From assembly GCA_016183245.1 (NCBI GenBank), contig JACPEY010000011.1, positions 5,568 through 69,567 of the forward strand: 64,000 bases of DNA, in the 5' to 3' direction. Source of the DNA: Candidatus Daviesbacteria bacterium (lineage in GTDB: Bacteria > Patescibacteriota > Microgenomatia > Daviesbacterales > UBA10151). Positions 2,840 through 57,755 of the stretch are shown in pieces (position 1 is the stretch's first letter; each line of letters opens with the position of its first letter). A model generated the notes under the pieces. That model was not told the origin of the DNA. It saw only the letters and a list, made by a program, of their open reading frames with translations, and did no database searches. Position numbers and translations under genes: made by a program.

Positions 2840-4702
2840 TTAGAATACATTATCGAATCTTTTGTGAGTCATAACTTCTTCTAAAATTACTGCTTTTGTT
2901 TTTGGGTTAATATAGTAAACTGTTCTTAGCTTCTCAGAAAATTGTTTATTTCCAAAAGGTAATCTTCTGGTGTCGCCCCGGAAACTTCGAAGCGACATTT
3001 TTTGACCGTTTTCAAAAATAGCAGATGCACTCTTTATTTTATAAGTCCCGGAACCAAAAGGATCTTCCTGCAGCGATTCAAGTATGAGTTTTATATCGCT
3101 TCTTAACCTCTGATCTCCAGGTATTAAATCGTTTGCAATTTCTTCTGCAAGAAGTCCTATATCTTGAATTTCAACTGTCTGACCGTGATAAATCAGCGCA
3201 TAATTTTCTTTTTCTTCTTGTTCGTGGGGTAAGGATTCAGTTGAAAGATCAGGCATTTCCTGACGGCCAGTAATAAGTGCAATAGACCTGAATGCTCGTC
3301 TCTTAGGAGATTTAGAAACATGCTTTATGGAATCTGATTCCTGGCTGGGAGAAGCAGGCATTGAAGGGGTATATCGTGGAAGCGGTTTGAATTCCACTAG
3401 AGGATTTCCTGTTCTGGCTTCTCTAAGAACAGGAGTTAATAAGTTCTGTATTAATAGATTGGCTGAAGCAGAATTGTCTTTCTGGAGTTGAGGAGGAACC
3501 CCAAGAAGTTGGCCATTTTGAACTAAATCTAAAGTAACAAAAACTTGTTCATCTTCAGTTATACCCACAATAGTGAGAGTTTTACCATATAGCGCTCCTA
3601 CTAAAATTTCATTAAAAAAAATATCTGTCTGGATTGGTATCCTGAGAAATCCATCTTTTGAAGCTTGAGCAGCACCTCTCAGATGTTTGTGATATAAGAC
3701 GGTAGCTTTTATTAGAGTTTCTGTTGTAGTATTTAAAGATGTCTTTTCAGCTTGACTCATTTTTGTCTGATCACGGTATGTTTGGCGTAGTATTTTAGCT
3801 AGTTTGGCTTCAGATCCTGGATTGGTATATTGGTACTTAGCGATTGCTTGGGGTATTTGTGCGGGGGACATGGTTTGCAAAAGAGATGTCATTGTGTGGA
3901 AGAAACCACTATTTCGTATGAAATGTCTAAATATTGAAGGGTTTAGGTTTTCCGTATGGGCATCGATCAGGCGGTAAGTAGATGAGGGTGTAATGTGAAG
4001 CCTAGCCGGGATAAAGCTAAGTAGCGCCCAGGGTAAATGATTTCCAGGTACCATCTTCAGCATAAAAAAGGGGGACTCATCTTTTTGATCATAGTTTAAA
4101 GCCCAGGCAGTGTAATACTCCCAATAATTTTTAAGCCTTTGTATTAATAGTCTTGCCTGATCTGAAATGGGAACTTTAGGGAAGAGCGTTGCTTGAGTAG
4201 CTGCTAAGTTAACCACACTTTGGATATAGAATGTTGGATCCCGGGGTTGACCTTCTTTTGTCTGGACTGGCTTAGTCCATTTATCAATCATTCGATCGAT
4301 TCGGGTAATATCCCTCGTACTCAAAGGAAGAGACATCTGACTTATATCTTTTAGAGAAGTGCCGTTGACCCGAAAGACTAGAGGATTGGCAGCAATATTT
4401 TTTTCTACACAAGCTTTTGTTGCACTCCATGAGCCCCCAGAAGTTACCAGAGGCATGCTATCTAGAAGTCGTTTGGTATCATCTAGGTATCCGGTATAGC
4501 CTGCCCATTGTGAGATTGTATGTAACAAAGTTGGCGGTCTGCTATAAACCCCAAGGTAATAATTGCCATCATCTTCCCTTATAGCTTGGTCCCATTGCCT
4601 AACAGTTTCTTGGATATTTCTCTCGAAAGTATTTAAACAAGTGATATATCTAATGGCTTGATGACTTTTGGCTTGATGACTTTGATTTTTAGTTCTCTCC
4701 AT
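2840..4702 (-). CDS. Hypothetical 620-aa protein. The C-terminal ~60 aa weakly resemble a RelE/ParE-fold toxin.
   Basis: A long ORF of atypical, higher GC. The C-terminus RLPFGNKQFSEKLRTVYYINPKTKAVILEEVMTHKRF resembles the RelE core YRLVYQVIDEKVVVFVISVGKRE. No signal peptide is present. Confidence 0.45.
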   Translation of the reverse strand: MERTKNQSHQAKSHQAIRYITCLNTFERNIQETVRQWDQAIREDDGNYYLGVYSRPPTLLHTISQWAGYTGYLDDTKRLLDSMPLVTSGGSWSATKACVEKNIAANPLVFRVNGTSLKDISQMSLPLSTRDITRIDRMIDKWTKPVQTKEGQPRDPTFYIQSVVNLAATQATLFPKVPISDQARLLIQRLKNYWEYYTAWALNYDQKDESPFFMLKMVPGNHLPWALLSFIPARLHITPSSTYRLIDAHTENLNPSIFRHFIRNSGFFHTMTSLLQTMSPAQIPQAIAKYQYTNPGSEAKLAKILRQTYRDQTKMSQAEKTSLNTTTETLIKATVLYHKHLRGAAQASKDGFLRIPIQTDIFFNEILVGALYGKTLTIVGITEDEQVFVTLDLVQNGQLLGVPPQLQKDNSASANLLIQNLLTPVLREARTGNPLVEFKPLPRYTPSMPASPSQESDSIKHVSKSPKRRAFRSIALITGRQEMPDLSTESLPHEQEEKENYALIYHGQTVEIQDIGLLAEEIANDLIPGDQRLRSDIKLILESLQEDPFGSGTYKIKSASAIFENGQKMSLRSFRGDTRRLPFGNKQFSEKLRTVYYINPKTKAVILEEVMTHKRFDNVF

Positions 4703-4765
4703 AGGCTAAAAATTATATCAGTTTAGACCTATAATATCAAATAATCGCATTCAGAGGCAAAAAAT

Positions 4766-5572
4766 TTAGAAAAAATTGTTCTGGTATAAAAACTTGGCGA
4801 TTTTTTCACTGATAAAATAAACTCCGGTTGGGGAAGGGTGAATAAAATCATTGGAATTTATATAATCAATATTTCCCGTGCCGTTTTTATCAAGTGACTG
4901 CTCGTAGATATTTACTAAGGGGATATTATGTATCTTTGCATATTTTATATGGTTTTTAATGTAAGAGACCCGTTCTTCTGCCCACTCCCGTCTTTTTTCA
5001 TCAGTTAAATTCGTTGTTCCTTCAGCATATCTTTCGTTGTTAGGAGCAATGGTAGCTACAAATACAATACTTGATTTAGGATGTTTTTGGGTAATTGAGG
5101 CAATAATTTTATCTAAAGCCTCTTCTTGTAATTTCAGCCCTTCTTCCAAAGGATATTCTGAAAGGGGATTGTGGCCAAAAGATTCAATTAAAATCAGGTC
5201 AAAGGGAATATTATTAATTGCCTGGAAAATTCTGCCTGCATGATCGCTGTCTCTTTCCAGCCTGTCTAAAACAGACAAGATATTTGTTGAGCCAAAACCA
5301 TAATTTAAGAGCAGGAATTTTTTATCAGGAAAAAATTTCTTTAAGTAACCTCTGAGTTCATCAAAATTTCCTAAATACTCCGTCATAGAATCCCCCACAA
5401 AAACAATAGTAGGATTGGGGTTTTTTGATTGGGTAATGCCAAGTGTTGTCTTTCGCTCAGGTATTTGTTTTTGAAAAAAATAAATAGTTGCAAAAAGGGG
5501 AATCAGGGAAATGAAGATTAAGATAAGGATAAATTTTTTTCTTTTTAGCATGAGTATTAACAATAATACCAA
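4766..5572 (-). CDS. SGNH/GDSL-family hydrolase, membrane-anchored.
   Basis: An N-terminal TM is followed by the GDS motif (IVFVGDSMTEYLGN) and a C-terminal DxxH block (DFIHPSPTG). Confidence 0.6.
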   Translation of the reverse strand: MVLLLILMLKRKKFILILIFISLIPLFATIYFFQKQIPERKTTLGITQSKNPNPTIVFVGDSMTEYLGNFDELRGYLKKFFPDKKFLLLNYGFGSTNILSVLDRLERDSDHAGRIFQAINNIPFDLILIESFGHNPLSEYPLEEGLKLQEEALDKIIASITQKHPKSSIVFVATIAPNNERYAEGTTNLTDEKRREWAEERVSYIKNHIKYAKIHNIPLVNIYEQSLDKNGTGNIDYINSNDFIHPSPTGVYFISEKIAKFLYQNNFF

Positions 5573-5575
5573 AAA

Positions 5576-7651
5576 TCATAATGGGATATTTTTCTGGGAA
5601 GCGCTGGGGGAAGGACGCGGTGAGGGATTGGGTTTTACCGGAATGCAGCCCTTTTCAGGTTCAGTGCTTTTGACATAATATTCCGTGGCAGAAGGTGTGG
5701 CTACTTTGGTAAGATCTACACCGCATGGGCCAATTTTTATTATACCCTCAGGAGGCTTAAATTCTTCTTGAGGTGTTCCTTTTGTAAATTCTTCCATTAA
5801 ATCTTTCCAGATAGGCGCTGCCCCTAAAGATCCGGCTATACCGTCCATAGGTTCGTTATAGTTATTTCCCACCCACACGCCTACAACTAAGCCGGGGGTA
5901 TAGCCAATTGTCCAGGCATCTTTAAAATCTTCAGTTGTGCCGGTTTTGACTGCAGCCGGCCGTGAGATATTTAAAGTATTGCCAAACACTTCTGCCCGGG
6001 TTTTATTATCAGACAGTATTGAAGATATTAAGAAAGCATATTTTTCGTTCACTACTTGTCTGGTATCAGGTTCATACCTGTAGATTAAATCGCCTCTTTT
6101 ATTTATAATTTCCAAAACAGCAGTCGGATTATTCCTGTATCCGTTATTTGCAAATACAGCATAAGCATTGGTAAGTTCCAAAAGTTTGACTTCACCTGCA
6201 CCTAAAACCAGTGATAAACCATAATCTGCAGGGTTTCTTAAGGTAGTGATGCCTAAATTCTTTGCCGAATCCAAAGCTTTCTCTATGCCTAATTTTTTAA
6301 GTACTGCTACAGATGGGATGTTTAAAGAATTTGCTAAAGCCCGTCTTACACTTACTGGTCCTCTGAACTTGCGGTCAAAATCTACAGGTTTATAAAAAGC
6401 ATTCGGGTCTTTTGCAAGCGAAGCTAAAGCAGCAGTCCGGGTCGGGAATGAAGCAAAAAATTTATCTTCATCAAAATTTGCAAAAGTAGTAGGTTCGTCT
6501 TTTAAGACAGTGGCCGGTGTAATAAGGCTGTCTTCAAATGCTTTGATATAGACAATAGGTTTAAAAGCAGATCCCGGCGGCCGCGGAGAGAGGGCAATAT
6601 TGACTTTACCAAAAATGTCATTATTCCAGTCTTTGCTGCCAACCATGGCTTTGATTTCAGCAGTTTTGGGATCTAAAACTACGGCTGCACCGTTTGAAGC
6701 ACGGTTTACCCGAAGTGTTTCTACATGTTTTGCGACCGCGTTTTCAGCATACTTTTGCCAATCTAAATCAATGGTAGTTTTAACTTTAAAACCAGCCCTG
6801 GCTATAACTTCTTCCCCGTATTGCCTGATAAGTTCATCCCTTACCATGATGGCAAAGTGGGGGGCAGTATTGTTTAAGTCGTTTTGATGGAGTTTGATTT
6901 CCAAATTTTCTTCCAAAGCCTCATCTTTTTGTTGAACAGTTATAAATTTTTGCTCTACCATCCTTTCCAGGACAATTCTTTGTCTGTTTTTAACTTCGTT
7001 TAGATTCCCGTTTAATAAAGAAAGGCGGGAAGGGGCAGGCAGGATTGATGCTAAAGCAGCGCTTTGGGCCAGGTTTAAATCACTTGCCTGTTTGTCAAAA
7101 TAAGTATTGGCTGCTTCTTCTATCCCAAAAGACCCTTCACCAAAATAAACTGAATTTAGATACATCTCCAGGATCTGGTTTTTGGAGTATCTTCTTTCAA
7201 GCTCCTGGGCTAAAATTATTTCCTGGTATTTCCGTAAAATTTCCTTTCTGGGATTAAGGAGGGAATTTTTAACAAGCTGCTGGGTAATGGTTGAAGCGCC
7301 GTACGAAAGGTTTTTCCCCTGAAGGTTATCAAAAAAAGCACGGGCAATGGAAAGTGGTGAAAATCCCGGGTGGGAGTAAAAATTTTTGTCTTCGGCAGCA
7401 ATGATGGCAAGCTGGGTAACTTTGGGGATATCAGATAATAAAATTTGCTTTTTAAGCTTGGCATCATAGAATGTAAAAAAGGGGCGGTTTTTAGTATCGA
7501 ATAATTTAAGTCCGGTGTCGTTATGGTTTATCAGGGTTTCTTTGGGAGCCAGTTCTGAAGCAAAATGAAGGTATGTAAAAATTGTTACGGAACACACAAA
7601 TATAGTGATGCCGAAAAAAGCTGCTAAAAGATCATGGCGTAACCACCTCAT
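5576..7651 (-). CDS. mrcA: Class A penicillin-binding protein (PBP1A, transglycosylase plus transpeptidase).
   Basis: GT51 motifs (AAEDKNFYSHPG, TITQQL) and the transpeptidase motifs SxxK (GSAFKP) and KTGTT are present. Confidence 0.85.
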   Translation of the reverse strand: MRWLRHDLLAAFFGITIFVCSVTIFTYLHFASELAPKETLINHNDTGLKLFDTKNRPFFTFYDAKLKKQILLSDIPKVTQLAIIAAEDKNFYSHPGFSPLSIARAFFDNLQGKNLSYGASTITQQLVKNSLLNPRKEILRKYQEIILAQELERRYSKNQILEMYLNSVYFGEGSFGIEEAANTYFDKQASDLNLAQSAALASILPAPSRLSLLNGNLNEVKNRQRIVLERMVEQKFITVQQKDEALEENLEIKLHQNDLNNTAPHFAIMVRDELIRQYGEEVIARAGFKVKTTIDLDWQKYAENAVAKHVETLRVNRASNGAAVVLDPKTAEIKAMVGSKDWNNDIFGKVNIALSPRPPGSAFKPIVYIKAFEDSLITPATVLKDEPTTFANFDEDKFFASFPTRTAALASLAKDPNAFYKPVDFDRKFRGPVSVRRALANSLNIPSVAVLKKLGIEKALDSAKNLGITTLRNPADYGLSLVLGAGEVKLLELTNAYAVFANNGYRNNPTAVLEIINKRGDLIYRYEPDTRQVVNEKYAFLISSILSDNKTRAEVFGNTLNISRPAAVKTGTTEDFKDAWTIGYTPGLVVGVWVGNNYNEPMDGIAGSLGAAPIWKDLMEEFTKGTPQEEFKPPEGIIKIGPCGVDLTKVATPSATEYYVKSTEPEKGCIPVKPNPSPRPSPSASQKNIPL

Positions 7652-7717
7652 GTATCAAGCTTAATCAGTTTTTGTGGAAAAAATATGAGAATATCCAGAG
7701 AAATGTGTAAGAGCTGG

Positions 7718-8746
7718 TTATTTGAAATATTTCCAGGTTTCGTATTTGCTCTGTAGTTGGTCTTCGGTGACACCTACTGGTTTGAGTCCGGCAACTTTAT
7801 TAAATCCCAAGTCCAAAAGCTCGGCTGTCCACAGGTCCCTTTCTAAAACTCCCGGGGCCCCTAACAAAACTGCTAAAATTTTGCTGCCTTCTCTTTCCGA
7901 CACCACAATTGTAGAGTGGCCTGCTTTTCCTGTATTGCCAATTTTTACTCCCGAAACATTAGGGTAAACACCTATCAGTCCGTTCCAGTTATTTAAATAA
8001 AACCTTAAATCAGTGGCATTTTTGGTTAAGTCCTCAAAGGGTTTTGATACGATTTGGGCAATTTCCGGGTATTCCTTTAATGCGTAAGCGGAGAGCGTGG
8101 TTAAGTCTTCCGTGCTGCTGAAATGATTGCTGTCATCATAACCTTCGGCATTGGTAAAATGGGTGTTTTTCAGGCCTAAAATTTGGGCCTTTAAATTCAT
8201 AGCTTTAATAAAAGTTCCTGGTTCATACTTTAAATCTATTCCTTCTTTAATTACTTCAGCGCTGTCATTGGCAGAAGATATCAGCATATGTTTTAAAAGA
8301 TCCAAAATACTAAATACCTCTCCTTCTTTCAGCATTACTTTAGTCGGAATTTGAGATGCAGCTTTTTCTGAAACGCTAAATTTCTCATCTGGTTTTGTCA
8401 GGTCAAGCGCCACAATTGCTGTCATAATTTTTGTAAGTGATGCAACAGGCAGCCTTTTTGATGGATTTTTAGCGGTAATGATTTGCCCGCTGCTCAAATC
8501 TGCCACAGTATAGGCTCGGGCCTCTTCATAATCAGACCCGGCAAAAACAGCAGAAATTAGTTGTTTTTTGATTTGAAAATAATTCTGTCTGGTTTCGAGT
8601 TTAGTTTTAACCTGTTCTAAAATACCAACAGGTTTTGGCATGGGGTTAATAAGTCTTTTACTAATCCCAAGATGAGGCATAACCACCATTAAAAAAGTCA
8701 AAAGCAGACCGGTAGAAAATATTCTGATAGATCTTGTTGTAAGCAT
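7718..8746 (-). CDS. dacA: D-alanyl-D-alanine carboxypeptidase (S11, PBP5-like).
   Basis: SxxK (ASLTKIMTA), SxN (SSAND) and KTG-like (KIGNTGKAG) motifs are present, together with an N-terminal signal. Confidence 0.8.
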   Translation of the reverse strand: MLTTRSIRIFSTGLLLTFLMVVMPHLGISKRLINPMPKPVGILEQVKTKLETRQNYFQIKKQLISAVFAGSDYEEARAYTVADLSSGQIITAKNPSKRLPVASLTKIMTAIVALDLTKPDEKFSVSEKAASQIPTKVMLKEGEVFSILDLLKHMLISSANDSAEVIKEGIDLKYEPGTFIKAMNLKAQILGLKNTHFTNAEGYDDSNHFSSTEDLTTLSAYALKEYPEIAQIVSKPFEDLTKNATDLRFYLNNWNGLIGVYPNVSGVKIGNTGKAGHSTIVVSEREGSKILAVLLGAPGVLERDLWTAELLDLGFNKVAGLKPVGVTEDQLQSKYETWKYFK

Positions 8747-15597: not shown

Positions 15598-15631
15598 AAA
15601 GACAGTCACAAGGACTGCTTTTTTTGTAAAG
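15598..15631 (-). terminator. Candidate bidirectional intrinsic terminator just 3' of tRNA-Lys(UUU).
   Basis: The stem-loop gacagtcacaaggactg is flanked by A-runs and T-runs on both strands. Confidence 0.4.
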
Positions 15632-15703
15632 TGAGCCGGCAGGGGATCGAACCCTGGACCAAGAGCTTAAAAGGCTCCTGCTCTACCGCTGAGCTACCGG
15701 CCC
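15632..15703 (-). tRNA. tRNA-Lys(UUU).
   Basis: A manual cloverleaf gives acceptor GGGCCGG/CCGGCUC, D-arm GCUCAGCGGUAGAGC, anticodon loop CUUUUAA and T-arm GGGUUCGAUCCCC. No CCA is encoded. Confidence 0.8.
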
Positions 15704-15784
15704 TCGCCCGCAACGCCAGCAAGCTGGCTTGCGTGGCGGGCGGGCCTCCTTGACGCAAACCAAACTCGTTTAACTAGCATTGCA

Positions 15785-16027
15785 TTAAATTCTATCCTTC
15801 AAAAACCGTCTGCCAAATCCTGTTTTAAAATACTGTTCCCTTCTAAACGCCTTATGCTTATCTGTGCAACCTTCAAAATAAACTAACTCTAATGGCCTTC
15901 TACTTTTAGTTGATTCTACTAACCCATCATTATGATCTTTAAGTCTTTGTTTTATAACAGATGTTGCTCCAACATAGAGCTTTCCATCCTTAATGCTTTT
16001 AAGAACATAAGTATAATAGAAACTCAT
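15785..16027 (-). CDS. GIY-YIG nuclease-superfamily protein (UPF0213-like).
   Basis: The motifs YTYVLKS...KLYVGATSVIKQRLKDHN are present. Confidence 0.65.
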   Translation of the reverse strand: MSFYYTYVLKSIKDGKLYVGATSVIKQRLKDHNDGLVESTKSRRPLELVYFEGCTDKHKAFRREQYFKTGFGRRFLKDRI

Positions 16028-17286: not shown

Positions 17287-17718
17287 ATGGTTGAGATACT
17301 GCCTGTTAGATTATTGACGGATGAAGATGCGCCGATTTATGGCAGCCTTAATGTGGCTCTTGCTAAGCTTCTAAGGAGTGGATTGCCGGTGGGAAATGGT
17401 ATCGTAATTACTCACCCGCAGATTAAATTAAAAACAGTGCTGGAACATTTTGATTTCAGTACAAAAGAAGTTTTTCAGCAAACACTTACTCTGGTAAAAA
17501 AAGAGATAAATACAGTTCCTGTTCCGCAGATTTTAAATAAAGAAGCAGGCAAACATAAGCAATTTCTTTTGAAGGGAGAGAAAATAAAGTCAGTCAAAAG
17601 TCTTTGGTTTAGTTTACTAAATATTTGGTTTGAGCAAATAAAAGAAAGACTTTGGAATAACGGGTTTTATAAAGACTTTGGAATAACGGGTTTTATTCAG
17701 GTATTACTGAGGGCCTAG
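17287..17718 (+). CDS. Hypothetical protein.
   Basis: An intact ORF with no recognised motif. Confidence 0.35.
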   Translation: MVEILPVRLLTDEDAPIYGSLNVALAKLLRSGLPVGNGIVITHPQIKLKTVLEHFDFSTKEVFQQTLTLVKKEINTVPVPQILNKEAGKHKQFLLKGEKIKSVKSLWFSLLNIWFEQIKERLWNNGFYKDFGITGFIQVLLRA

Positions 17719-17729
17719 AGCCGCAGATT

Positions 17730-18869
17730 GTGATATTTATTAAAAAAGTTGAGAGTTTTGGAAATGCATATTTTGATCCTTTACAGGATGATGTGGAGAT
17801 TTCTGTAAGGACAGGAAAATTACACCCAAATGACCGGGAGAAGATTTCTGAGATGGTCAAATCAGCGAATAAGAAATTGTTTATTCCCCACTACTATGAA
17901 TGGATTTTTGATGGTAGCGTTAAGTTGGTAGGAGTAAAGCTATATACTCCATCTATTATTGCTTCTGCTTCCTTTCCTGTCATTGCGAGGAGCGAAGCGA
18001 CGCGGCAATCCTCAACGAATTGGGAAGATCGCCACGCTATCGCTCGCGATGACAAAAAGGTTTCTGCAGTCAAGGTGTTTTTTGATTTATCAGTAGGGCT
18101 TACAATTGAAAAAGAGATAGACGGGGTATACATAGCTTCTGAGAAAATATTTGACCTTAACAAACCCGGAGAATCATTTGAGAATCTAGTTTTTAGACTG
18201 GTGGAATCTGCCATTACTTTTCCCCGTTCCCTGATACTTTTTAAACTGGCGGATAAATCAGAAGGCCTGCCTGACGGCAAGGCAGGCATGGGTAAAGTGC
18301 GCGGCAGTTTGCGGTTGCTTCATCAGAAAAGTTTATTTGATCCTCTTTTGGAAGTTTTAGATTTTGCCCGTCACAAAAAAGGACTGACAAATATTCATAT
18401 AGTCATACCATATGTGCGGGGTGTAAATGAGCTTCTAAAAATAAAAAGAGAACTGGCTGTCCGGAAGCTCTCCAGAAAAAATTCATTAGGGCATTGGATG
18501 GAAATAGCTTTACCGGAAAATATTATTAATTTGGAAGATTATTTGATTGCAGGGATTGACGGGGTTGTTTTAAACCTTGATGAACTGATTTCCCACTTGA
18601 ACGGATTTGATATCAAAGAAGAAGAGCTGATATTTTATAAAAATGAGGCAGAGGGGTTAATGAAGTTTTTAGAAGACGGCATTAGGCTTTTACATAAATC
18701 AAAAGTTCCTTTTATAGCATCCGGTACTTCAACTTTTAATCAAAAAATGTTGGAGTTTTTAGTGGAGAAAGGGGTAACGGGGGTGGTGGTAGAAAAATAT
18801 GAAGCTCACTCTGCTAAGGATTTATTGCATCAGACAGAAAGAAGGATAGTTTTAAGAAGGGTGGAATAG
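17730..18869 (+). CDS. PEP-utilizing-enzyme-like protein (resembles the C-terminal TIM-barrel of PEP synthase/PPDK) carrying an in-frame palindromic insertion.
   Basis: The blocks NIHIVIPYVRGVNELLKIKREL and IAGIDGVVLNLDELI resemble the PEP-utilizing barrel. The 25-aa segment VIARSEATRQSSTNWEDRHAIARDD is encoded by a 75-bp palindromic element. Confidence 0.35.
   Translation: MIFIKKVESFGNAYFDPLQDDVEISVRTGKLHPNDREKISEMVKSANKKLFIPHYYEWIFDGSVKLVGVKLYTPSIIASASFPVIARSEATRQSSTNWEDRHAIARDDKKVSAVKVFFDLSVGLTIEKEIDGVYIASEKIFDLNKPGESFENLVFRLVESAITFPRSLILFKLADKSEGLPDGKAGMGKVRGSLRLLHQKSLFDPLLEVLDFARHKKGLTNIHIVIPYVRGVNELLKIKRELAVRKLSRKNSLGHWMEIALPENIINLEDYLIAGIDGVVLNLDELISHLNGFDIKEEELIFYKNEAEGLMKFLEDGIRLLHKSKVPFIASGTSTFNQKMLEFLVEKGVTGVVVEKYEAHSAKDLLHQTERRIVLRRVE
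17979..18053. repeat. MITE-like palindromic element (GTCATTGCGAG...CTCGCGATGAC termini), 75 bp, in frame inside a CDS.
   Basis: The termini gtcattgcgag and ctcgcgatgac form a perfect 11-bp terminal inverted repeat. The 75-bp length (a multiple of 3) preserves the reading frame. Confidence 0.6.
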
Positions 18870-19535
18870 TAAAATATATTCGCCTTTGGGATTTTTGAGA
18901 GTTTCCAGCCAACTTGAAACTGGTTTTGTTTCAACGCTTTGGTGGATTTTGGTCAGTTCATGAGCCAAAGTGATATTAATGTTTCCAAAAACTTCTTTAA
19001 TGCTTTCTATAATCCTGATTAATTTATGTGGAGCTGCAAACATTATATATGTCATCTCCCCGGGTGTCCTATCTGATTCACCCCCCAGGTGGATAAACTG
19101 AGAAAGGAATTTTTTTCTATGGCCGGGCTTTTCCGGCGGGTATCCTAAAAACATGAATTTATCAGGTGGCAGGCCGGATAAAGTAAGTGCTGTGATTGCT
19201 GATGACGGCCCTGGTAAGGAATCAACTTTAACTTCCTGTTGCAAGCACTCTCTGATTAGTTTATACCCGGGATCAGAAATTAAAGGGGTGCCGGCATCAG
19301 AAACCAGGGCCAAATTTTGGCCGTTTTTTAGACGATCGACAATAGTTTGTACACTTCGGGCTTCGTTATAGTCATTTAAAATAATTAGAGGTTTATGAAT
19401 GTTATAGTGGTTCAATAGCAGGGACGTTCTTCTGGTGTCTTCACAAATAATTCCATCAACTGACTCAAGAGTCTCTAGCGCTCTTAGGGTAATGTCTTTG
19501 AGATTGCCGATAGGAGTGGCGACAATATATAGCAT
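18852..19535 (-). CDS. rsmI: 16S rRNA (cytidine1402-2'-O)-methyltransferase RsmI (tetrapyrrole-methylase family) carrying an in-frame REP insertion.
   Basis: The family motifs LYIVATPIGNLKDITLRALETL and ICEDTRRT are present. The inserted peptide HLGGESDRTPGE is encoded by REP copy 2. Confidence 0.8.
   Translation of the reverse strand: MLYIVATPIGNLKDITLRALETLESVDGIICEDTRRTSLLLNHYNIHKPLIILNDYNEARSVQTIVDRLKNGQNLALVSDAGTPLISDPGYKLIRECLQQEVKVDSLPGPSSAITALTLSGLPPDKFMFLGYPPEKPGHRKKFLSQFIHLGGESDRTPGEMTYIMFAAPHKLIRIIESIKEVFGNINITLAHELTKIHQSVETKPVSSWLETLKNPKGEYILLFHPS
19057..19094. repeat. REP-like palindromic element, copy 2, inside the rsmI coding sequence.
   Basis: The sequence ccccgggtgtcctatctgattcaccccccaggtgga matches the family consensus. 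Confidence 0.6.
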
Positions 19536-20179: not shown

Positions 20180-20256
20180 ATCAAGTTATGATAGCAGAAA
20201 ATTCCAGAAGGGGGAAGAAGTAATTATGTAAGACATTAGTTTCTCCCAAAGATTTT

Positions 20257-20377
20257 GTCATCTTGACCCGCCTCTCAGCCGGAGGCAATGAGGGCGGGGA
20301 AAGATCTCTAGATTAATCTTGAGATTCCTCACTACGCCTGCCTGCCCTGCCCTGCCGGCAGGCAGGTTCGGAATGAC
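20257..20377. repeat. MITE-like palindromic element (GTCATCTTGA...TCGGAATGAC termini) with internal hairpins, intergenic.
   Basis: GTCAT/ATGAC terminal inverted repeats enclose internal palindromes cccgcctc...gagggcggg and cctgccctgccggcaggcagg. Confidence 0.5.
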
Positions 20378-20409
20378 AATTTACTGGGAAACTCTGAATA
20401 GTTACGTAA

Positions 20410-37803: not shown

Positions 37804-37840
37804 TTCCACCTGGGGGGTGGGCTAGGTAGGACACCTAGGG
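37804..37840. repeat. REP-like palindromic element, copy 4, at the 3' flank of the RAYT.
   Basis: The sequence tccacctggggggtgggctaggtaggacacctaggg matches the family consensus. Confidence 0.65.
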
Positions 37841-37862: not shown

Positions 37863-38612
37863 CTATTCCTGTACGAGATGTTGAATTTTATGAAGTTGTC
37901 TTTGATAATCGGCATGGTCTTCGATAAATTTTTGATAAACCTTAGGATTTATGAAAAGGCTCATTATTATATCTAAATTACAAATCTCAGCCTTATTACT
38001 TAGATATTCAGAGAGGGATGACCAGGGATATGCAAATAAGGTATTTAGATCCTTTACGACGTAGGAGGTATAGGGATTGAGATGAATGTATCTTGAAATG
38101 TGTATTAACTGTTCATCAGTTATGATTAGTTTAGCTTTAAATTGATCTAAGAAGAGTGATCCATCGCGTTCTCTTTTAGTATTAGAATATCTAGTGTAGC
38201 TATTTTGAAAATTCCCCAAAAATTTAGAAATTCCCTTATCTTTAATTTGTTTTATTAAAAAATGGAAATGATTTGGCATTAAACAAAAAGCCAGAATTTC
38301 TACAAGCTTATCATCTTCTTTCCTCAAATTATCCATAATTTTTGTCCGGTCATCATTTGAAAGTGTTAGAAATTTTGATAATTTAGCGGGAAGATTGCTG
38401 AATCTATAGAAGTCGATTACAAGCCTTGCTCTTTTGTATTCCAGTTTATCTAAGAAAGTTGGTTGATGATTTATCCCACGGTTAAAAACATGATAAATTT
38501 GGTCATTAACTAAAGGTGTTAATCTACCCGGCATATTTCTTAGAATAACCCTGATATCCCTAGGTGTCAATAGAAATCCACCCCCCAGGTGGACTATACT
38601 ATTCAGATTCAA
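37863..38612 (-). CDS. REP-associated tyrosine transposase (RAYT; IS200/IS605-like Y1 HUH transposase).
   Basis: The N-terminal block YHVFNRGINHQPTF, the HUH motif NHFHFLI and the catalytic-Tyr block RYIHLNPY are present. The first ~17 codons (HLGGGFLLTPRD) are REP-encoded, so the real start may be the internal Met at ~38534. Confidence 0.75.
   Translation of the reverse strand: MNLNSIVHLGGGFLLTPRDIRVILRNMPGRLTPLVNDQIYHVFNRGINHQPTFLDKLEYKRARLVIDFYRFSNLPAKLSKFLTLSNDDRTKIMDNLRKEDDKLVEILAFCLMPNHFHFLIKQIKDKGISKFLGNFQNSYTRYSNTKRERDGSLFLDQFKAKLIITDEQLIHISRYIHLNPYTSYVVKDLNTLFAYPWSSLSEYLSNKAEICNLDIIMSLFINPKVYQKFIEDHADYQRQLHKIQHLVQE
38558..38594. repeat. REP-like palindromic element, copy 5, at the 5' end of the RAYT.
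   Basis: The sequence ccctaggtgtcaatagaaatccaccccccaggtgga matches the family consensus. Confidence 0.65.
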
Positions 38613-39294
38613 TACTGCCGGAGCCTTCCTGTTCTTTGTTGACTTGTGGGGGTTCTTCTCTTAGAAAATATTGAATTGTTGGATCATCTTCTTCCCATTT
38701 TTTTATTTTTTCGCGGGCTTCAGTGTTTAAATCGCGTCCTGCAACGGGGATTATTTCCTTTCCCAATCTGTTTAGGATTCCTAATACTTTAGGATCAGCA
38801 ATAGTTTCTCCTGTAACCGGATCCAAGTCTTCATAACTAACCGCAATTTCATCAAATGGGAGTTCTAATGCTCCTTGTAAAGGTATACTGGAAAAATGGC
38901 CTGTCTCCTTCCTTAATTTTTGTGCTTCCTCAATTGACAAAGTTCCTCTTGCTACCCCTAAAGGAATATAAGGATTTGAGGGTTTTTCTTCCTCATTAAG
39001 AGTCCCTCCCTGTAAAGTAATTTCCTGATAGGTTTTAAAGTCAAGTGCCATATACTTAGTATAATTTATTTGATCACGCTCTGCTACTTCACTCTTTAAT
39101 AATCTTGCAAAATGGGGTAAAATAATAGTTTGATTTTTCGAAGAAAAATAGTCCCACGGTTTATTTTTCGGGGAAAATATGGCTATAGACAAAATTACTA
39201 TTAAAGGTGCTAGAGAACATAATTTAAAAAATATTGACCTGGAAATTCCTAAGAACAAGTTAGTGGTTTTAACCGGGATCTCCGGTTCAGGCAA
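38599..39294 (-). CDS. Hypothetical protein with an uncertain start (the annotated 5' end overlaps the uvrA start).
   Basis: The ORF overlaps the first ~115 nt of uvrA on the opposite strand. An internal Met near 39054 is the more plausible start. Confidence 0.3.
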   Translation of the reverse strand: MPEPEIPVKTTNLFLGISRSIFFKLCSLAPLIVILSIAIFSPKNKPWDYFSSKNQTIILPHFARLLKSEVAERDQINYTKYMALDFKTYQEITLQGGTLNEEEKPSNPYIPLGVARGTLSIEEAQKLRKETGHFSSIPLQGALELPFDEIAVSYEDLDPVTGETIADPKVLGILNRLGKEIIPVAGRDLNTEAREKIKKWEEDDPTIQYFLREEPPQVNKEQEGSGSIESE

Positions 39295-42265
39295 GTCTTC
39301 CCTGGCTTTTGATACCCTTTATGCCGAAGGTCAAAGAAGGTATGTAGAATCTTTATCTTCCTATGCCCGGCAGTTTTTGGGAGTCATGGATAAGCCTGAT
39401 GTAGATTTGATTGAAGGTCTTTCTCCTGCGATTTCTATTGACCAAAAAGGTGTCTCACACAATCCTCGCTCTACAGTTGGAACCACCACGGAAATTTACG
39501 ATTATTTAAGGCTTTTATTTGCCCGGGTTGGCCATCCTCATTGTCCTGTATGCGGTAGGGAAGTTGCCAAGATGAGCGTAGAGCAAATTACTCAACTTGT
39601 CATTCTGGGGAGAAGCGGAGCGACGACTCCAGAATCTATTACTAAGGATTCTGGACAAGCCAGAATGACAAAAAGGGGCAGGAGAATAATGATTTTGGCG
39701 CCGGTGGTTAAAGACAGGAAAGGCGAGTACAGCCAGTTATTTGAAGATTTCAGGAAAAAAGGGTTTTCTAAAGTCAGGGTTGGCGGATATATAATAGACC
39801 TGGCTGATGATTTGGTATTAATTAAAACAAATAAGCATACGATTGATCTGGTTGTAGATAGGCTTGTTTTAGATAAGAGTGTCATTCTGGGAGTCCCGAC
39901 GAAGTCGCGGACGACACCAGAATCAACGAATCAGTTAGATTCTGGACGCGCCCCTTCAGGGCCTGCCAGAATGACAAAAGAAAGTAAAGATAGTACTCAA
40001 GCAGACAATATTTACTCAAGATTGTCACAAAGCATTGAGACAGCGCTTAAATTTGGTGAGGGATCAGTGATAGTTTCTGATGTGCTGGATGCTTCTTTGG
40101 AATTCCCTCAAAATCCTAAAAAAATGGAGGACCATCTTTACTCGGAAAGATTTGCCTGTCCTGTAGACAATATCTCGCTGAGCGAGATTGAACCCAGACT
40201 TTTGTCTTTTAACTCTCCTCACGGAGCCTGTCCAAAATGTTCAGGATTAGGGAATCTTTTAGAAATTGATGCAGCTACAATTTTAAATCCAATTCTCTCT
40301 ATAGCAGAGGGCGGAATTCTGCCTATGTCAAAGCTTGCCACAAGTGATACCTGGTATACAAGGCTTATTGAAGCAGTGGGTAAAAAATATGGCTTTGATA
40401 CAAATACAAGGCTGGGGAATCTGACAGCTGAAGCCAAAAAGATATTGCTTTATGGTGGCGCAGATGAAGAATTTAAAGTAGAAGGCAGGAACAGACAGGG
40501 GAAGTGGACTCATTTTTATTCTGAATTTGCCGGGCTGGTGCCTTATCTTAAGGAAAGATATACAACAACTGAGTCGGATTTTGTTAAGGCCGAAATTGAA
40601 AAATATATGGTCAAAGAAACCTGTCCGAAGTGTAAAGGAGCAAGACTTAAAGATGAAGCACTTTCAATAACTATAGATGGATTAAACATTGCAGAAGTTA
40701 CCAGCCAGTCAATTGTTCAGGCTTTGGACTGGATCAAAAGAATTTCCGCTCGTAATGATGGGAAGGTATTAAGTGAGCGTGAGGCACAGATAGCAAGTCC
40801 TATTTTAAAAGAAATTAATGCCAGGTTGCAGTTTTTGATTGATGTGGGATTGGATTATCTGACTTTAGACAGGGCTGCCATGACTCTGGCGGGAGGAGAA
40901 TCACAAAGGATCAGGCTTGCTTCCCAGATCGGTTCAGGGCTTTCCGGAGTATTGTATGTTTTAGACGAGCCTTCAATAGGGTTGCATCAAAGGGATAATA
41001 CCAGGTTGATTGAAACTTTAAAAAAACTCAGGAATCTGGGTAATACTGTGATTGTTAATGAACATGATGCTGAAACAATGGAGGCATCGGATCTTCTGAT
41101 CGAAATTGGTCCGGGAGCCGGTGAACACGGCGGGCAGATTGTAGCTATAGGAACGCCTGATGAAATTAAGAAAAATCCCGCATCGACAACCGGCCAGTAT
41201 TTATCCGGAAATAAAAAAGTCGGAGCAAATATTCTTCAAGCACAGCGAGAATCTTCCTTAAAAACTATTAATAAATATGTGCTTAAAATTTTGGGTGCTT
41301 CTGAACATAACTTAAAAAATATTGACGTTTCTTTCCCCCTGGGAAAATTTATAGTAATTACAGGTGTTTCCGGTTCAGGTAAATCAACTTTAATTCATGA
41401 TATTTTATTTAAAGCTCTAGCCCAAAAAGTTTACCGCTCCAGGGAAAAACCCGGGCTGCATAGGGGCCTGGAAGGAACAGAGAATATAGATAAGGTAGTA
41501 TTGGTAGACCAGTCGCCTATTGGCCGCACTCCCCGTTCAAATCCGGCTACATATACCGGGGCATTTACCCACATCCGGGAGCTGTTTGCCCAAAGCCCGG
41601 AAGCAAAAATCAGAGGCTATAACCCGGGCAGATTTTCCTTTAATGTCAAAGGAGGAAGGTGTGAAGTTTGTGAGGGAGAGGGTACTTTAAAGATTGAGAT
41701 GCAGTTTTTACCGGATGTGTATGTAAGTTGTGAGTCATGTAACGGAGCAAGGTATAACAGGGAAGCTTTGGAAATCTATTTTAAGGAGAAAAATATTGCC
41801 CAGGTTCTGGATATGACGGTTGAAACTGCTTTAAAGTTTTTTGAAAATATTCCTCAGGTTAAAAACAAGCTGCAGGTTTTATTTGATGTGGGGTTGGGGT
41901 ACATTAAGCTGGGACAGCCTGCACCTACTCTTTCAGGAGGAGAAGCCCAAAGGATTAAACTTTCTTCAGAATTATCAAAACGTTCTACAGGACAAACAGT
42001 ATATATTCTTGATGAACCTACAACAGGCTTGCATTTTGCCGATATCGAAAGACTTCTAATGATCCTGAGGAAGTTAGTTAATGTGGGGAATACAGTAATA
42101 ATAATAGAACATAACCTGGATGTGATAAAAAATACTGACTGGGTAATAGATTTAGGCCCTGAAGGCGGAGACAAGGGGGGGAAAATTGTCGCCCAAGGTA
42201 CTCCTGTCCAAATTGCCAAAATTAAAGATTCTTACACCGGCATGTATCTTGCAAAAATACTTTAA
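39179..42265 (+). CDS. uvrA: Excinuclease ABC subunit A (UvrA) carrying two in-frame palindromic-element insertions.
   Basis: Two ABC modules are present, each with Walker A GxSGSGKS (GISGSGKSSL, GVSGSGKSTL), signature LSGGE and Zn-finger CxxC pairs. At 1028 aa it is longer than the ~940 aa typical of UvrA. The extra segments are ...TTPESITKDSGQARMTKRG... and ...TTPESTNQLDSGRAPSGPARMTKES... Confidence 0.9.
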   Translation: MAIDKITIKGAREHNLKNIDLEIPKNKLVVLTGISGSGKSSLAFDTLYAEGQRRYVESLSSYARQFLGVMDKPDVDLIEGLSPAISIDQKGVSHNPRSTVGTTTEIYDYLRLLFARVGHPHCPVCGREVAKMSVEQITQLVILGRSGATTPESITKDSGQARMTKRGRRIMILAPVVKDRKGEYSQLFEDFRKKGFSKVRVGGYIIDLADDLVLIKTNKHTIDLVVDRLVLDKSVILGVPTKSRTTPESTNQLDSGRAPSGPARMTKESKDSTQADNIYSRLSQSIETALKFGEGSVIVSDVLDASLEFPQNPKKMEDHLYSERFACPVDNISLSEIEPRLLSFNSPHGACPKCSGLGNLLEIDAATILNPILSIAEGGILPMSKLATSDTWYTRLIEAVGKKYGFDTNTRLGNLTAEAKKILLYGGADEEFKVEGRNRQGKWTHFYSEFAGLVPYLKERYTTTESDFVKAEIEKYMVKETCPKCKGARLKDEALSITIDGLNIAEVTSQSIVQALDWIKRISARNDGKVLSEREAQIASPILKEINARLQFLIDVGLDYLTLDRAAMTLAGGESQRIRLASQIGSGLSGVLYVLDEPSIGLHQRDNTRLIETLKKLRNLGNTVIVNEHDAETMEASDLLIEIGPGAGEHGGQIVAIGTPDEIKKNPASTTGQYLSGNKKVGANILQAQRESSLKTINKYVLKILGASEHNLKNIDVSFPLGKFIVITGVSGSGKSTLIHDILFKALAQKVYRSREKPGLHRGLEGTENIDKVVLVDQSPIGRTPRSNPATYTGAFTHIRELFAQSPEAKIRGYNPGRFSFNVKGGRCEVCEGEGTLKIEMQFLPDVYVSCESCNGARYNREALEIYFKEKNIAQVLDMTVETALKFFENIPQVKNKLQVLFDVGLGYIKLGQPAPTLSGGEAQRIKLSSELSKRSTGQTVYILDEPTTGLHFADIERLLMILRKLVNVGNTVIIIEHNLDVIKNTDWVIDLGPEGGDKGGKIVAQGTPVQIAKIKDSYTGMYLAKIL
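39599..39669. repeat. MITE-like palindromic element (GTCATTCTGG...CCAGAATGAC termini), copy A, inside uvrA.
   Basis: A 10-bp perfect terminal inverted repeat and an internal palindrome ccagaatc...gattctgg are present. Confidence 0.6.
39881..39975. repeat. MITE-like palindromic element (GTCATTCTGG...CCAGAATGAC termini), copy B, inside uvrA.
   Basis: It has the same 10-bp terminal inverted repeat as copy A and is about 95 bp long. Confidence 0.6.
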
Positions 42266-52652: not shown

Positions 52653-52996
52653 CTTCTACTACGCTTTTCAGGCTATAGGATTAGTTATAGGAGGTGATTA
52701 TCGTAAATGTTACCTTTGGATGTGATTAGAAAATATTATCCTGACTTATCAGATGAAGAATTGAAAAAAATACAGGTGTTTGTTTACCAGTTATGTTGTG
52801 GATTAATGCAATACTTTTATGGAGACAACTGGGAAGGGGATACTGGTGATCCGGACTTGAAAAATGAAGAAGGTTGATATAACAACCTAATCATGAGTTC
52901 GAATCCTAAGCGGTCTCTCGTTTATAGGATTAAATCTAAGCAATTTTTCTCGAATTGCCGAAGCTAAAATTTTGCAAAAGCACTTATATCATCCTG

Positions 52997-53068
52997 TGAG
53001 CCGGGTGGGATTCGAACCCACGGCCAATGGATTAAGAGTCCATTGCTCTACCGCTGAGCTACCGGCCC
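52997..53068 (-). tRNA. tRNA-Lys(CUU).
   Basis: A manual cloverleaf gives acceptor GGGCCGG/CCGGCUC, anticodon stem AUGGA/UCCAU, loop CUCUUAA and T-arm GUGGGUUCGAAUCCCAC. Confidence 0.8.
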
Positions 53069-53263
53069 GTTATAATCTATCTTTCAAAAACTTTCTTCCA
53101 AATCCTGTCTTAAAATATCTTTCTCTTTTCAATTCAATGAGTCCCGCCCGCAACGCCTGAGCAAGCTTCAACATCAAACTACATTGTATATTCTAACAAT
53201 TTATGCTCAAAATGTCATTTCTGGGAACAGAGGGAACAGAAAAGAGGGGTGCTGTAATAATCA

Positions 53264-57578: not shown

Positions 57579-57755
57579 CGCGCCTGGAGGGAGTCGAACC
57601 CCCAACCGCCTCGTCCGACCCGCTCGCCAAAGTATTGCGCCTTCGGGGAGAATCGAACTCCCATCACTGGTTCCGAAGACCAGTACTCTATCCGTTAAGC
57701 TACGAAGGCTTTAGCGGGCGAGAGCGAGGTGCTCTATCCATTAAGCTACAGGCGC
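57579..57755 (-). other. Split or disrupted tRNA-like gene (outer tRNA) whose anticodon region is interrupted by ~111 nt that contain a complete tRNA-Arg(UCG).
   Basis: The 5' acceptor GCGCCUG plus D-arm UAGCUUAAUGGAUAGAGC lie at the high-coordinate end. The T-arm GGGGGUUCGACUCCCUC plus 3' acceptor CAGGCGC lie at the low end. The anticodon stem CCUCG/CGAGG brackets the inserted block. Confidence 0.4.
57638..57709 (-). tRNA. tRNA-Arg(UCG).
   Basis: A manual cloverleaf gives acceptor GCCUUCG/CGAAGGC, D-arm GCUUAACGGAUAGAGU, anticodon stem CUGGU/ACCAG, loop CUUCGGA and T-arm GGGAGUUCGAUUCUCCC. Confidence 0.7.

Follow-up and report, generated by a model that had tools for sequence, protein, structure and literature searches.

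Why does a conserved gene of a Candidatus Daviesbacteria genome carry, in its reading frame, a G+C-rich palindrome of exactly 25 codons? The question is raised by a 64,000-nucleotide stretch of contig JACPEY010000011.1 (the window, below), in which a 75-nt element, GTCATTGCGAG...CTCGCGATGAC, occupies positions 17979-18053 inside the open reading frame (ORF) 17730-18869. The evidence described here makes it probable that this segment is a non-autonomous, head-to-head pair of repetitive extragenic palindromic (REP) units of the CGTC superfamily, in the TGTC variant, carried as an in-frame passenger, with a nuclease of the Ssn type as its putative partner.

The element (full letters, GTCATTGCGAGGAGCGAAGCGACGCGGCAATCCTCAACGAATTGGGAAGATCGCCACGCTATCGCTCGCGATGAC) starts at a codon boundary of the ORF and supplies amino acids 84-108, with the peptide VIARSEATRQSSTNWEDRHAIARDD. 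It is carried in frame, and its coordinates and length agree with an earlier note on this DNA, which had described a 75-bp palindrome of exactly 25 codons. That note had also called the 11-bp terminal inverted repeat perfect; in fact, GTCATTGCGAG and the opposite-strand GTCATCGCGAG are complementary at 10 of 11 positions, with one T:G pair. The complementarity of the ends runs one base further out (T...A), giving TGTCAT...ATGACA. By itself, the terminal 11-mer was within chance, with 2 matches compared to 0.45 expected, a number that was reached in 8 of 100 shuffles. The significance of the element lies instead in its fold, its G+C contrast and its recurrence elsewhere. It forms a long imperfect hairpin that folded better than all 200 of 200 shuffled sequences (z = -3.6 as DNA); as RNA, the z scores from 200 shuffles were -3.8 for the + strand and -5.2 for the - strand. 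Its G+C content is 59%, compared to ≈38% window-wide. We considered the possibility that this is a chance palindrome in a fast-evolving linker. The insignificant 11-mer match would suit such an origin, but no shuffle folded equally well, the G+C content jumps at the element, and several hundred copies with the same inner motifs occur in unrelated genomes. This recurrence refutes a chance origin, the probability of which is negligible.

REPs have been split into GTAG-tagged and CGTC-tagged superfamilies (Di Nocera, De Gregorio and Rocco 2013, BMC Genomics 14:522; PMC3733652). The CGTC REPs have an unpaired CGTC tag (variants TGTC and CCTC), stems that start with A-T and a 3-nt tail near CCA; they occur mostly as pairs with the tags outside (head to head), and have no linked transposase (PMC3733652). 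The segment 17979-18053 is such a head-to-head pair, made of two TGTC-tagged REP hairpins with their tags outside. The order of parts in each unit is a TGTC tag, a stem started by A-T, a loop, a closing stem that ends in AT, a C, and two further tail bases. The pair and its relatives in the window are as follows:

17978..18054, no strand assigned: head-to-head TGTC REP pair in the gene for a phosphoenolpyruvate (PEP)-binding-like protein, made up of the 75-bp element and one further base at each end (T and A)
17978..18012, + strand: left REP unit, with TGTC, stem ATTGC (17982-17986)/GCAAT (18005-18009), 18-nt loop GAGGAGCGAAGCGACGCG and tail CCT
18013..18024, no strand assigned: spacer between the units, 12 nt, CAACGAATTGGG, variable
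18025..18054, - strand: right REP unit, with TGTC, stem ATCGC/GCGAT, 13-nt loop GAGCGATAGCGTG and tail CTT
20256..20378, no strand assigned: intergenic head-to-head pair of unlike units, between lexA-like and DedA/VTT-like genes
39598..39670, no strand assigned: ATTCTGG/CCAGAAT head-to-head pair, in frame in uvrA, peptide VILGRSGATTPESITKDSGQARMT
39880..39976, no strand assigned: second ATTCTGG/CCAGAAT head-to-head pair in uvrA, in frame, with longer, hairpin-bearing loops, peptide VILGVPTKSRTTPESTNQLDSGRAPSGPARMT

The window contains exactly four G+C-rich segments bounded by GTCAT...ATGAC (17979-18053, 20257-20377, 39599-39669 and 39881-39975). In all four, the base before is T and the base after is A, and all four folded far better than shuffled sequences. 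The grammar TGTC / AT... / ...AT / C holds in every one of their eight half-units. In the uvrA pairs, all four units have ATTCTGG/CCAGAAT stems, with loops of 5-26 nt and the tails CTA, CCT, CAA and CTA, while the stems of the intergenic pair are ATCTT/AAGAT and ATTCC/GGAAT, both tails are CTC, and a G+C-rich hairpin is nested in each loop. The terminus that the 75-bp element had been said to share with two uvrA copies is thus part of a common unit grammar, and both copies exist. The 121-bp copy reported at 20257-20377 is likewise present, although it has the full unit grammar in common with the others and not just the GTCAT...ATGAC core that the earlier note had allowed it. Since the ATTGC outer end can pair either with the inner motif of its own unit or with the far end of the pair, the same sequence may form one long or two short hairpins.

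We then asked how widely this type of pair occurs. The termini used for the search were GTCATTGCGAG and CTCGCRATGAC, separated by 35-65 nt, with the T...A-flanked form used for metagenome contigs. Matches were found at no fewer than 120 loci each in viral contigs, in species-representative genomes and in metagenome contigs, and the left-arm 23-mer matched 93 viral-contig loci; the further copies that the earlier note had proposed to look for thus number in the hundreds, in other genomes. The titles of the genomes listed represent at least 12 lineages, including many Bradyrhizobium, sphingomonads, Pedobacter, Mucilaginibacter, Flavobacterium, Chloroflexi, Planctomycetota and Microcoleus, as well as Patescibacteria/Berkelbacteria, Omnitrophota, Desulfobacterales, Opitutaceae, Aminicenantes and Tisiphia. 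A plasmid BLAST search gave matches on seven records, with no annotation beneath them, including at least 40 places on one Novosphingobium replicon. The ATTCTGG-type pair pattern had 0 matches in viral contigs, indicating that this subtype is much rarer than the GCGAG type. An Rfam search of the window returned only three tRNAs at the gathering score, and a permissive run gave miRNA-like chance matches, the best at 24 bits against a cut-off of 100. Literature searches with strings from the element and its peptides found primers only.

Unit statistics were compiled from the matches listed, which comprised 378 distinct elements, or 756 half-units. An inner GCAAT was found within 32 nt in 716 half-units; the family has the inner core GCAATC/GATTGC and the ends TGTCATTGCGAG. 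Among these 716 half-units, the commonest loops were the 12-nt GAGCGNAGCGAA (259) and the 18-nt GAGGAGCGNAGCGACGAA type (142). The 18-nt loop GAGGAGCGAAGCGACGAA, which is close to the left loop of the window element, ranked fourth, and the right-unit loop GAGCGATAGCGTG recurs in other loci, such as L131. Tails were mostly CCA (292) or CTC (215), and the spacers, tails included, measured 8-43 nt. GTC is preceded by C in 68% of copies and by T in 26%, corresponding to a CGTC or TGTC tag; G or A after GAC mirrors this. The left-unit loop GAGGAGCGAAGCGACGCG contains the mini-hairpin motif GCGAAGC; the N in the general form, GCGNAGC, varies freely across the family, and GCGNAGC is the sequence of a GNA-triloop DNA mini-hairpin.

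The commonest pairing was a 12-nt-loop unit with an 18-nt-loop unit (83 of 341 pairs). The two members of a pair had identical tails in 222 of the 341 pairs, compared to 93 ± 7 expected, and identical loops in 34, compared to 4.8 expected. Thus, copying seems to act on the pair and not on the single unit. There was no target-site duplication: identical flanks of 1 nt were present in 10 of 259 copies and of 3 nt in three, at chance level. This bears on an alternative origin as a miniature inverted-repeat transposable element (MITE), in which an insertion sequence with terminal inverted repeats of 11-12 bp would have given rise to the segment and a DDE transposase would have moved it. The terminal inverted repeats, small size, many copies and presence or absence among orthologues all resemble a MITE. 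Nevertheless, the absence of a target-site duplication in 259 copies makes a DDE-type MITE unlikely, and the terminal motif recurs inside the element (ATTGC...GCAAT occurs twice), which is the anatomy of a REP pair and not of insertion sequence ends. Furthermore, the only gene families that recurred within 1.5 kb of ≈270 copies were phage and gene-transfer-agent genes, which reflect the sampling of viral contigs; there was no recurrent transposase. Taken as a whole, a DDE-moved MITE is highly improbable.

The REP pair is inserted in the following gene:

17287..18869, + strand: host gene, encoding a PEP-binding-like protein of ≈500 amino acids, conserved in Daviesbacteria and split here into ORFs 17287-17718 and 17730-18869

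ORF 17730-18869 is the 3' part of this gene and is 100% identical to hypothetical protein HYU95_00945 (Candidatus Daviesbacteria bacterium). The split results from a perfect 26-bp tandem duplication (AAAGACTTTGGAATAACGGGTTTTAT, twice) at 17645-17696, which frameshifts the gene. The duplication is either genuine, making this a pseudogene, or an error of assembly. The earlier description of the host as resembling a PEP-utilizing enzyme is weak for the protein alone, which matched PF02896 with E=4.8e-4, below the curated cut-off, and only the C-terminal part of PEP synthase in NCBIfam; some of the ≈500-aa orthologues are named "putative PEP-binding protein" in the sources. In an alignment of 22 relatives, the insert falls within a hypervariable stretch between the conserved blocks ...VKLVGIKPYTPS and SAVKVFFDLS.... 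In the AlphaFold model of the host protein, the confident N-terminal part stops just before residue 75, and residues 75-116, which include the insert, score below 50; this model was poor (mean predicted local distance difference test score, pLDDT, 48) and was given little weight.

The order SNase - DUF192 - host gene - rsmI-like gene is kept in eight orthologous loci (L326-L334). At the linker, flanked in each by the same two protein anchors, the following states were found:

L326: same pair as in the window, 73/75 identical
L327: same pair as in the window, 65/75 identical
L329: left unit alone, CGTC-tagged
L330: ATTCTGG pair of the uvrA type, 116 nt
L334: another pair type
L331: possible decayed remains
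L332: unrelated G+C-rich stretch
L333: A+T-rich stretch of 84 nt, element-free

The native P-S-V-I codons at the left anchor (in L329, L330 and L334) read CCxTCTGTCATT and thus already contain the TGTCATT that forms the tag and the start of the stem, and the pairs in L330 and L334 start precisely at this native TGTCATT, which hints at targeting to, or recombination at, a pre-existing TGTCATT. The host linker looks like a repeatedly used landing place that is partly made of repeat debris. For the 121-bp element, the intergenic gap of L334 that is orthologous to 20256-20378 measures ≈52 bp and is element-free; exact empty-site boundaries could not be set, given the divergence of the L333 and L334 intergenic sequences.

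The element of L326 is 97% identical to that of the window, compared to 74.5% for the remainder of the gene; the corresponding values for L327 are 87% and 74.7%. Such an excess suggests that the DNA is constrained, was copied recently or undergoes conversion between copies, and does not favour neutral drift. We therefore considered whether the segment might be retained because it has its own role in this gene, for example as an mRNA hairpin by which translation is slowed or regulated between two domains, or as a selected linker peptide. No other part of the gene is as well conserved between the window and L326 as these 75 nt, the RNA folds strongly, and many REPs have been argued to act as RNA elements (PMC3733652). 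Against this, the same DNA family is mostly intergenic elsewhere, and its reading frame, or the frame at its end, differs in other genes (VI...DD here, VI...MT in uvrA). Orthologues have no element or unrelated pairs at the same place, and the conservation may equally stem from recent copying or gene conversion among copies. A function of the segment itself is therefore very unlikely to be what keeps it in the gene.

The same gene has a second small insert, a 21-bp G+C-rich hairpin (GGCCTGCCTGACGGCAAGGCA) at 18264-18284, which adds GLPDGKA. Only some orthologues have an insert of this type (EGLPAGQAG, EGMSDGRQG and a longer one in P0015), and its GCCTGCC...GGCAGGC motif is also nested in the 121-bp element, at ≈20336-20365.

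The earlier note had predicted that copies within coding sequences would be biased towards lengths that are multiples of three. No such bias was supported. Over all copies, the lengths between terminal inverted repeats (TIR to TIR) left remainders of 0, 1 and 2 in 57, 44 and 43 cases, respectively. For copies inside genes, we chose loci whose flanks are low in G+C; there, a long frame that reads through is reasonable evidence for a gene. In these loci, nine of 109 copies lay inside a through-reading ORF, with remainders 0/1/2 in five, three and one cases, and two of the five remainder-0 cases were orthologues of the insertion at 17979-18053. The uvrA copies are 71 and 95 nt TIR to TIR. ATTCTGG pairs of 71, 95 and 116 nt all have remainder 2, and the GCGAG pairs measure 75 and 87 nt; this is at most a hint that, within a subtype, the length inserted and the TIR-to-TIR span are offset by a constant base or so. 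In ≈200 kb of Patescibacteria DNA, seven of nine pairs were inside ORFs. One of the right-end frames gives a TGA, which leads to the recurring ...MT and ...DD/ND endings of the peptides. The in-frame state is the condition of a survivor in an intact gene and not a property of the element.

The other two in-frame pairs are in the following gene:

39179..42265, + strand: uvrA, host of two further pairs, from alignment to UvrA 2r6f

When the protein was aligned to Bacillus stearothermophilus UvrA, the first insert corresponded to gaps on the 2r6f side, and the second was a 43-residue segment (query residues 233-275) with no counterpart in 2r6f. Both inserts presumably lie within the UvrB-binding domain of that structure.

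How might such a pair reach a gene and stay there? In the sequence of events that we consider most plausible, the pair arrived by landing or copying in a conserved Daviesbacteria gene, at a hypervariable linker between domains. Having no stop codon in the host frame, and keeping that frame, it would persist and be translated as a passenger of 25 residues that the linker tolerates. The uvrA pairs and the 121-bp intergenic pair are further members with other stems. The mobiliser is probably not a DDE transposase. This type of repeat is one that GIY-YIG nucleases of the Ssn type bind as single-stranded DNA (ssDNA), so that the likeliest agent of its recognition and spread is a hairpin-specific enzyme of this kind acting in trans. 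Thus, an Ssn-type nuclease encoded elsewhere in the genome may recognise the pair as a single-strand hairpin, and either this interaction or recombination among the copies may keep the pairs uniform and spread them.

SsnA is a 94-aa, single-domain GIY-YIG nuclease that binds the Neisseria repeat NTS, CGTCATTCCCGCGMAVGCGGGAATCYRG (a CGTCATT...AATC hairpin), only as ssDNA and cuts it a few bases upstream (Chenal et al. 2025, Nat Commun 16:2388; PMC11893778). The C directly after the palindrome is most crucial for binding, the GTC/C bases matter most for cleavage and binding, and ssn genes with such motifs at their flanks occur in different phyla (PMC11893778). In agreement with this, four Ssn-like genes in other loci (L189, L363, L280 and L388) were bordered on one or both sides by 2-4 tags per 300 bp (both sides in three cases), compared to a background of 0.29. 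The repeats around L189 and L363 are of the GCGAG type, and those around L280 and L388 are of an ATTCT type with the same GAGCGNAGCGAA loop.

Several observations weigh against the interpretation of the segment as a CGTC REP passenger with an Ssn-type partner. The host gene is frameshifted upstream in the window, so that the tolerance of the insert in frame rests on the intact orthologue L326, and the high conservation of the element could also mean that it has its own function. The stems in the window are 5-7 bp and the loops 5-41 nt, compared to 8-9 bp and 4-5 nt for the four CGTC families in the catalogue; the one unit that comes near these sizes is the right one of 39598-39670, with a 7-bp stem and a 5-nt loop, although exceptions in stem and loop size are known in Bradyrhizobium CGTC-1 (PMC3733652). 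The degenerate string published for the Ssn-related motif (SRM; PMC11893778), HGTCWYN(0-2)YYVSBRHN(0-5)WNVSBRGN(0-2)RNCYNB, had 0 matches in the window, and the family consensus failed it as well, whereas the Neisseria NTS passed as a control; the units fail the string because of their longer loops. No Ssn gene (single-domain GIY-YIG, cd10448) flanked by these repeats was present within the 64-kb window. The only GIY-YIG gene in the window, at 15785-16027, is beside tRNA-Lys and has tag-free flanks, as do its orthologues in L332 and L333, and these genes scored much lower against Ssn-like queries; the window gene is a more distant relative. Finally, transposition of CGTC REPs or by Ssn has been demonstrated experimentally in neither PMC3733652 nor PMC11893778, and the copying step is conjecture.

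The GIY-YIG gene at 15785-16027 was tried as the partner nuclease, and was dropped as unproven: homologues were found in 2 of 324 loci, and neither its own flanks nor those of its orthologues have tags. This single-domain gene lies directly upstream of tRNA-Lys(ttt); the DNA between the two holds a G+C-rich hairpin that begins with CGTC (≈15704-15750; region 15631-16027), and a GIY-YIG fragment at 53073-53192 adjoins tRNA-Lys(ctt) (region 52996-53192). The linkage between GIY-YIG and tRNA-Lys is repeated in two other Daviesbacteria, L332 (≈7280-7980) and L333 (≈4700-5170), and in L332 a partial copy of the tRNA is present on the opposite side of the GIY-YIG gene. This linkage suggests a homing-type element that targets tRNA-Lys.

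The window also has a candidate for a different mobiliser, a RAYT (REP-associated tyrosine transposase)-like Y1 transposase gene at 37863-38612, just upstream of uvrA, raising the possibility that the element is a REPIN (a REP doublet that forms a hairpin) moved by a RAYT. This ORF matched PF01797 (E=1.8e-8) and NF047646, REP-associated tyrosine transposase (E=2.3e-13, below the curated cut-off). The element is built as a REPIN-like doublet hairpin, and the absent target duplication fits single-strand transposition. However, the RAYT-like gene is flanked by a different, inverted repeat, CCACCTGGGGGGTGG...CTAGRTAGGACACCTAGGG, with six copies in the window, and not by TGTCAT.... No homologue of the ORF was present in the first 204 element-bearing loci, and no species examined in the 2013 survey had a tyrosine transposase gene flanked by CGTC repeats (PMC3733652). 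With a different repeat of its own, the RAYT-like gene is an unlikely source of movement, and we regard this route as quite improbable.

The RAYT-like gene and its repeats deserve a description of their own. The gene (37863-38612, - strand) has its flanking repeats at 37806-37840 and 38560-38592, each ≈36 bp, of the form TCCACCTGGGGGGTGG-N-CTAGRTAGGACACCTAGGG and inverted. Further copies are near 2758, 19078, 35729 and 63818, and the 15-mer core occurs six times in the window, compared to 0.63 expected. One of the copies is inside the rsmI-like gene (18852-19535), where it encodes the peptide HLGGESDRTPGE. Together, 37863-38612 and these repeats look like a REP/RAYT system in a genome of the candidate phyla radiation (CPR).

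A further reading gives the pairs a role: in Patescibacteria, they might be working ssDNA sites within genes for an Ssn-like or other nuclease, for example in steering recombination or transformation. Repeated landing at the same linker with different stems, the landings in uvrA, and conservation above that of the surrounding enzyme led us to this idea, which we consider unlikely overall. If it were true, the by-product would be a main source of new linker peptide in these reduced genomes. In a related possibility, the units with long GCGNAGC loops would constitute a new class of specificity, served by a dedicated enzyme.

For the interpretation of the segment as a passenger REP pair, the consequences are as follows. 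Repeats of the CGTC/Ssn type, known mainly from Proteobacteria, also populate CPR genomes, where the copies are largely inside genes because there is little intergenic room. The new aspects are the host lineage, a long-loop unit type outside the 2013 catalogue, and an allelic series at one site. This natural series (pair, single unit, other pair, empty) is at one orthologous position, and the long-loop variant, with its conserved 11-nt ends, spans at least 12 lineages. The four loci described above add more examples of Ssn-like genes bracketed by their repeats. For annotators, the pairs explain odd G+C-rich peptides (VIARSEAT..., VILG...ARMT, ...IARDD) and many spurious small ORFs. The known behaviour of such repeats is left unchanged by this result.

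The window has two other features. The intergenic segment 53512-53576 is a palindromic element of a different family, TTGTAGGGGTTGACC...GGTCCGCCCCTACAA, with two internal hairpins (fold z = -5.6). The segment 57561-57636 is G+C-rich, contains tRNA-like segments (GGAGTCGAACCCCCAACC) and adjoins tRNA-Arg (57637-57709); it was not called as a tRNA, and may be a degenerate or split one.

Among known systems, the CGTC REPs are the closest to the elements described here. The tag is TGTC on all eight half-units of the window, all stems start with A-T, and the tails are 3 nt (CCT, CTT, CTC, CTC, CTA, CCT, CAA and CTA), with CCA the commonest in the wider family. All four window elements have their tags outside and can form a long hairpin, and no adjacent transposase recurs near ≈270 copies. 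Intragenic CGTC pairs encode 20-30 aa in frame, often in uvrA, uvrB, uvrC, polA and dnaE2, and the peptides listed include VIPAKAGI...IPAFAGMT and VIAGLDPAIH...DARVKPAHD, of the forms VI...MT and ...ND/HD (PMC3733652); the in-frame copies here show the same peptide frame pattern. The present elements differ in their spacers (6-12 nt in the window, compared to the usual 20-100 nt) and in the loops of the family, which are typically 12 or 18 nt with GCGNAGC. Patescibacteria are outside the five phyla listed in 2013, and the ATTGC...GCAAT type is outside the table of intragenic copies. The published families have many copies per genome; the window has four pairs in 64 kb, and at least 40 places match on the Novosphingobium replicon.

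The Neisseria repeat dRS3 and the rickettsial RPE-4 (CGTC-4) and RPE-6 (CGTC-1) have also been equated with CGTC REPs (PMC3733652). NTS/dRS3 shares the CGTCATT start and AATC end with the units of this family, and, as in the Ssn motif, GTC before the palindrome and C after it are found in all eight half-units of the window. In Neisseria, only 2% of NTS copies are in genes, compared to three of the four window pairs. The REPIN-RAYT system (Bertels and Rainey 2011; Nunvar et al. 2010) is similar in having an inverted hairpin doublet, no target duplication and a single-strand hairpin as the likely substrate. It differs in that its repeats carry GTAG-type tags and flank their own RAYT gene, whereas another repeat flanks the RAYT-like gene of the window.

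Rickettsia palindromic elements (RPE), reportedly described by Ogata et al. in 2000 in frame in conserved protein genes, offer a parallel for the fate of the insert. There, too, small palindromes stand in frame in the conserved genes of a reduced genome and are carried as extra surface peptide segments, just as the insertion here is stop-free, in frame and absent from homologues. The RPE differ in their stems and loops and in host lineage, and RPE-1 is longer (≈100-150 bp) and unrelated in sequence. Rickettsia and other bacteria thus already provide examples of this behaviour, to which the present case adds a CPR bacterium.

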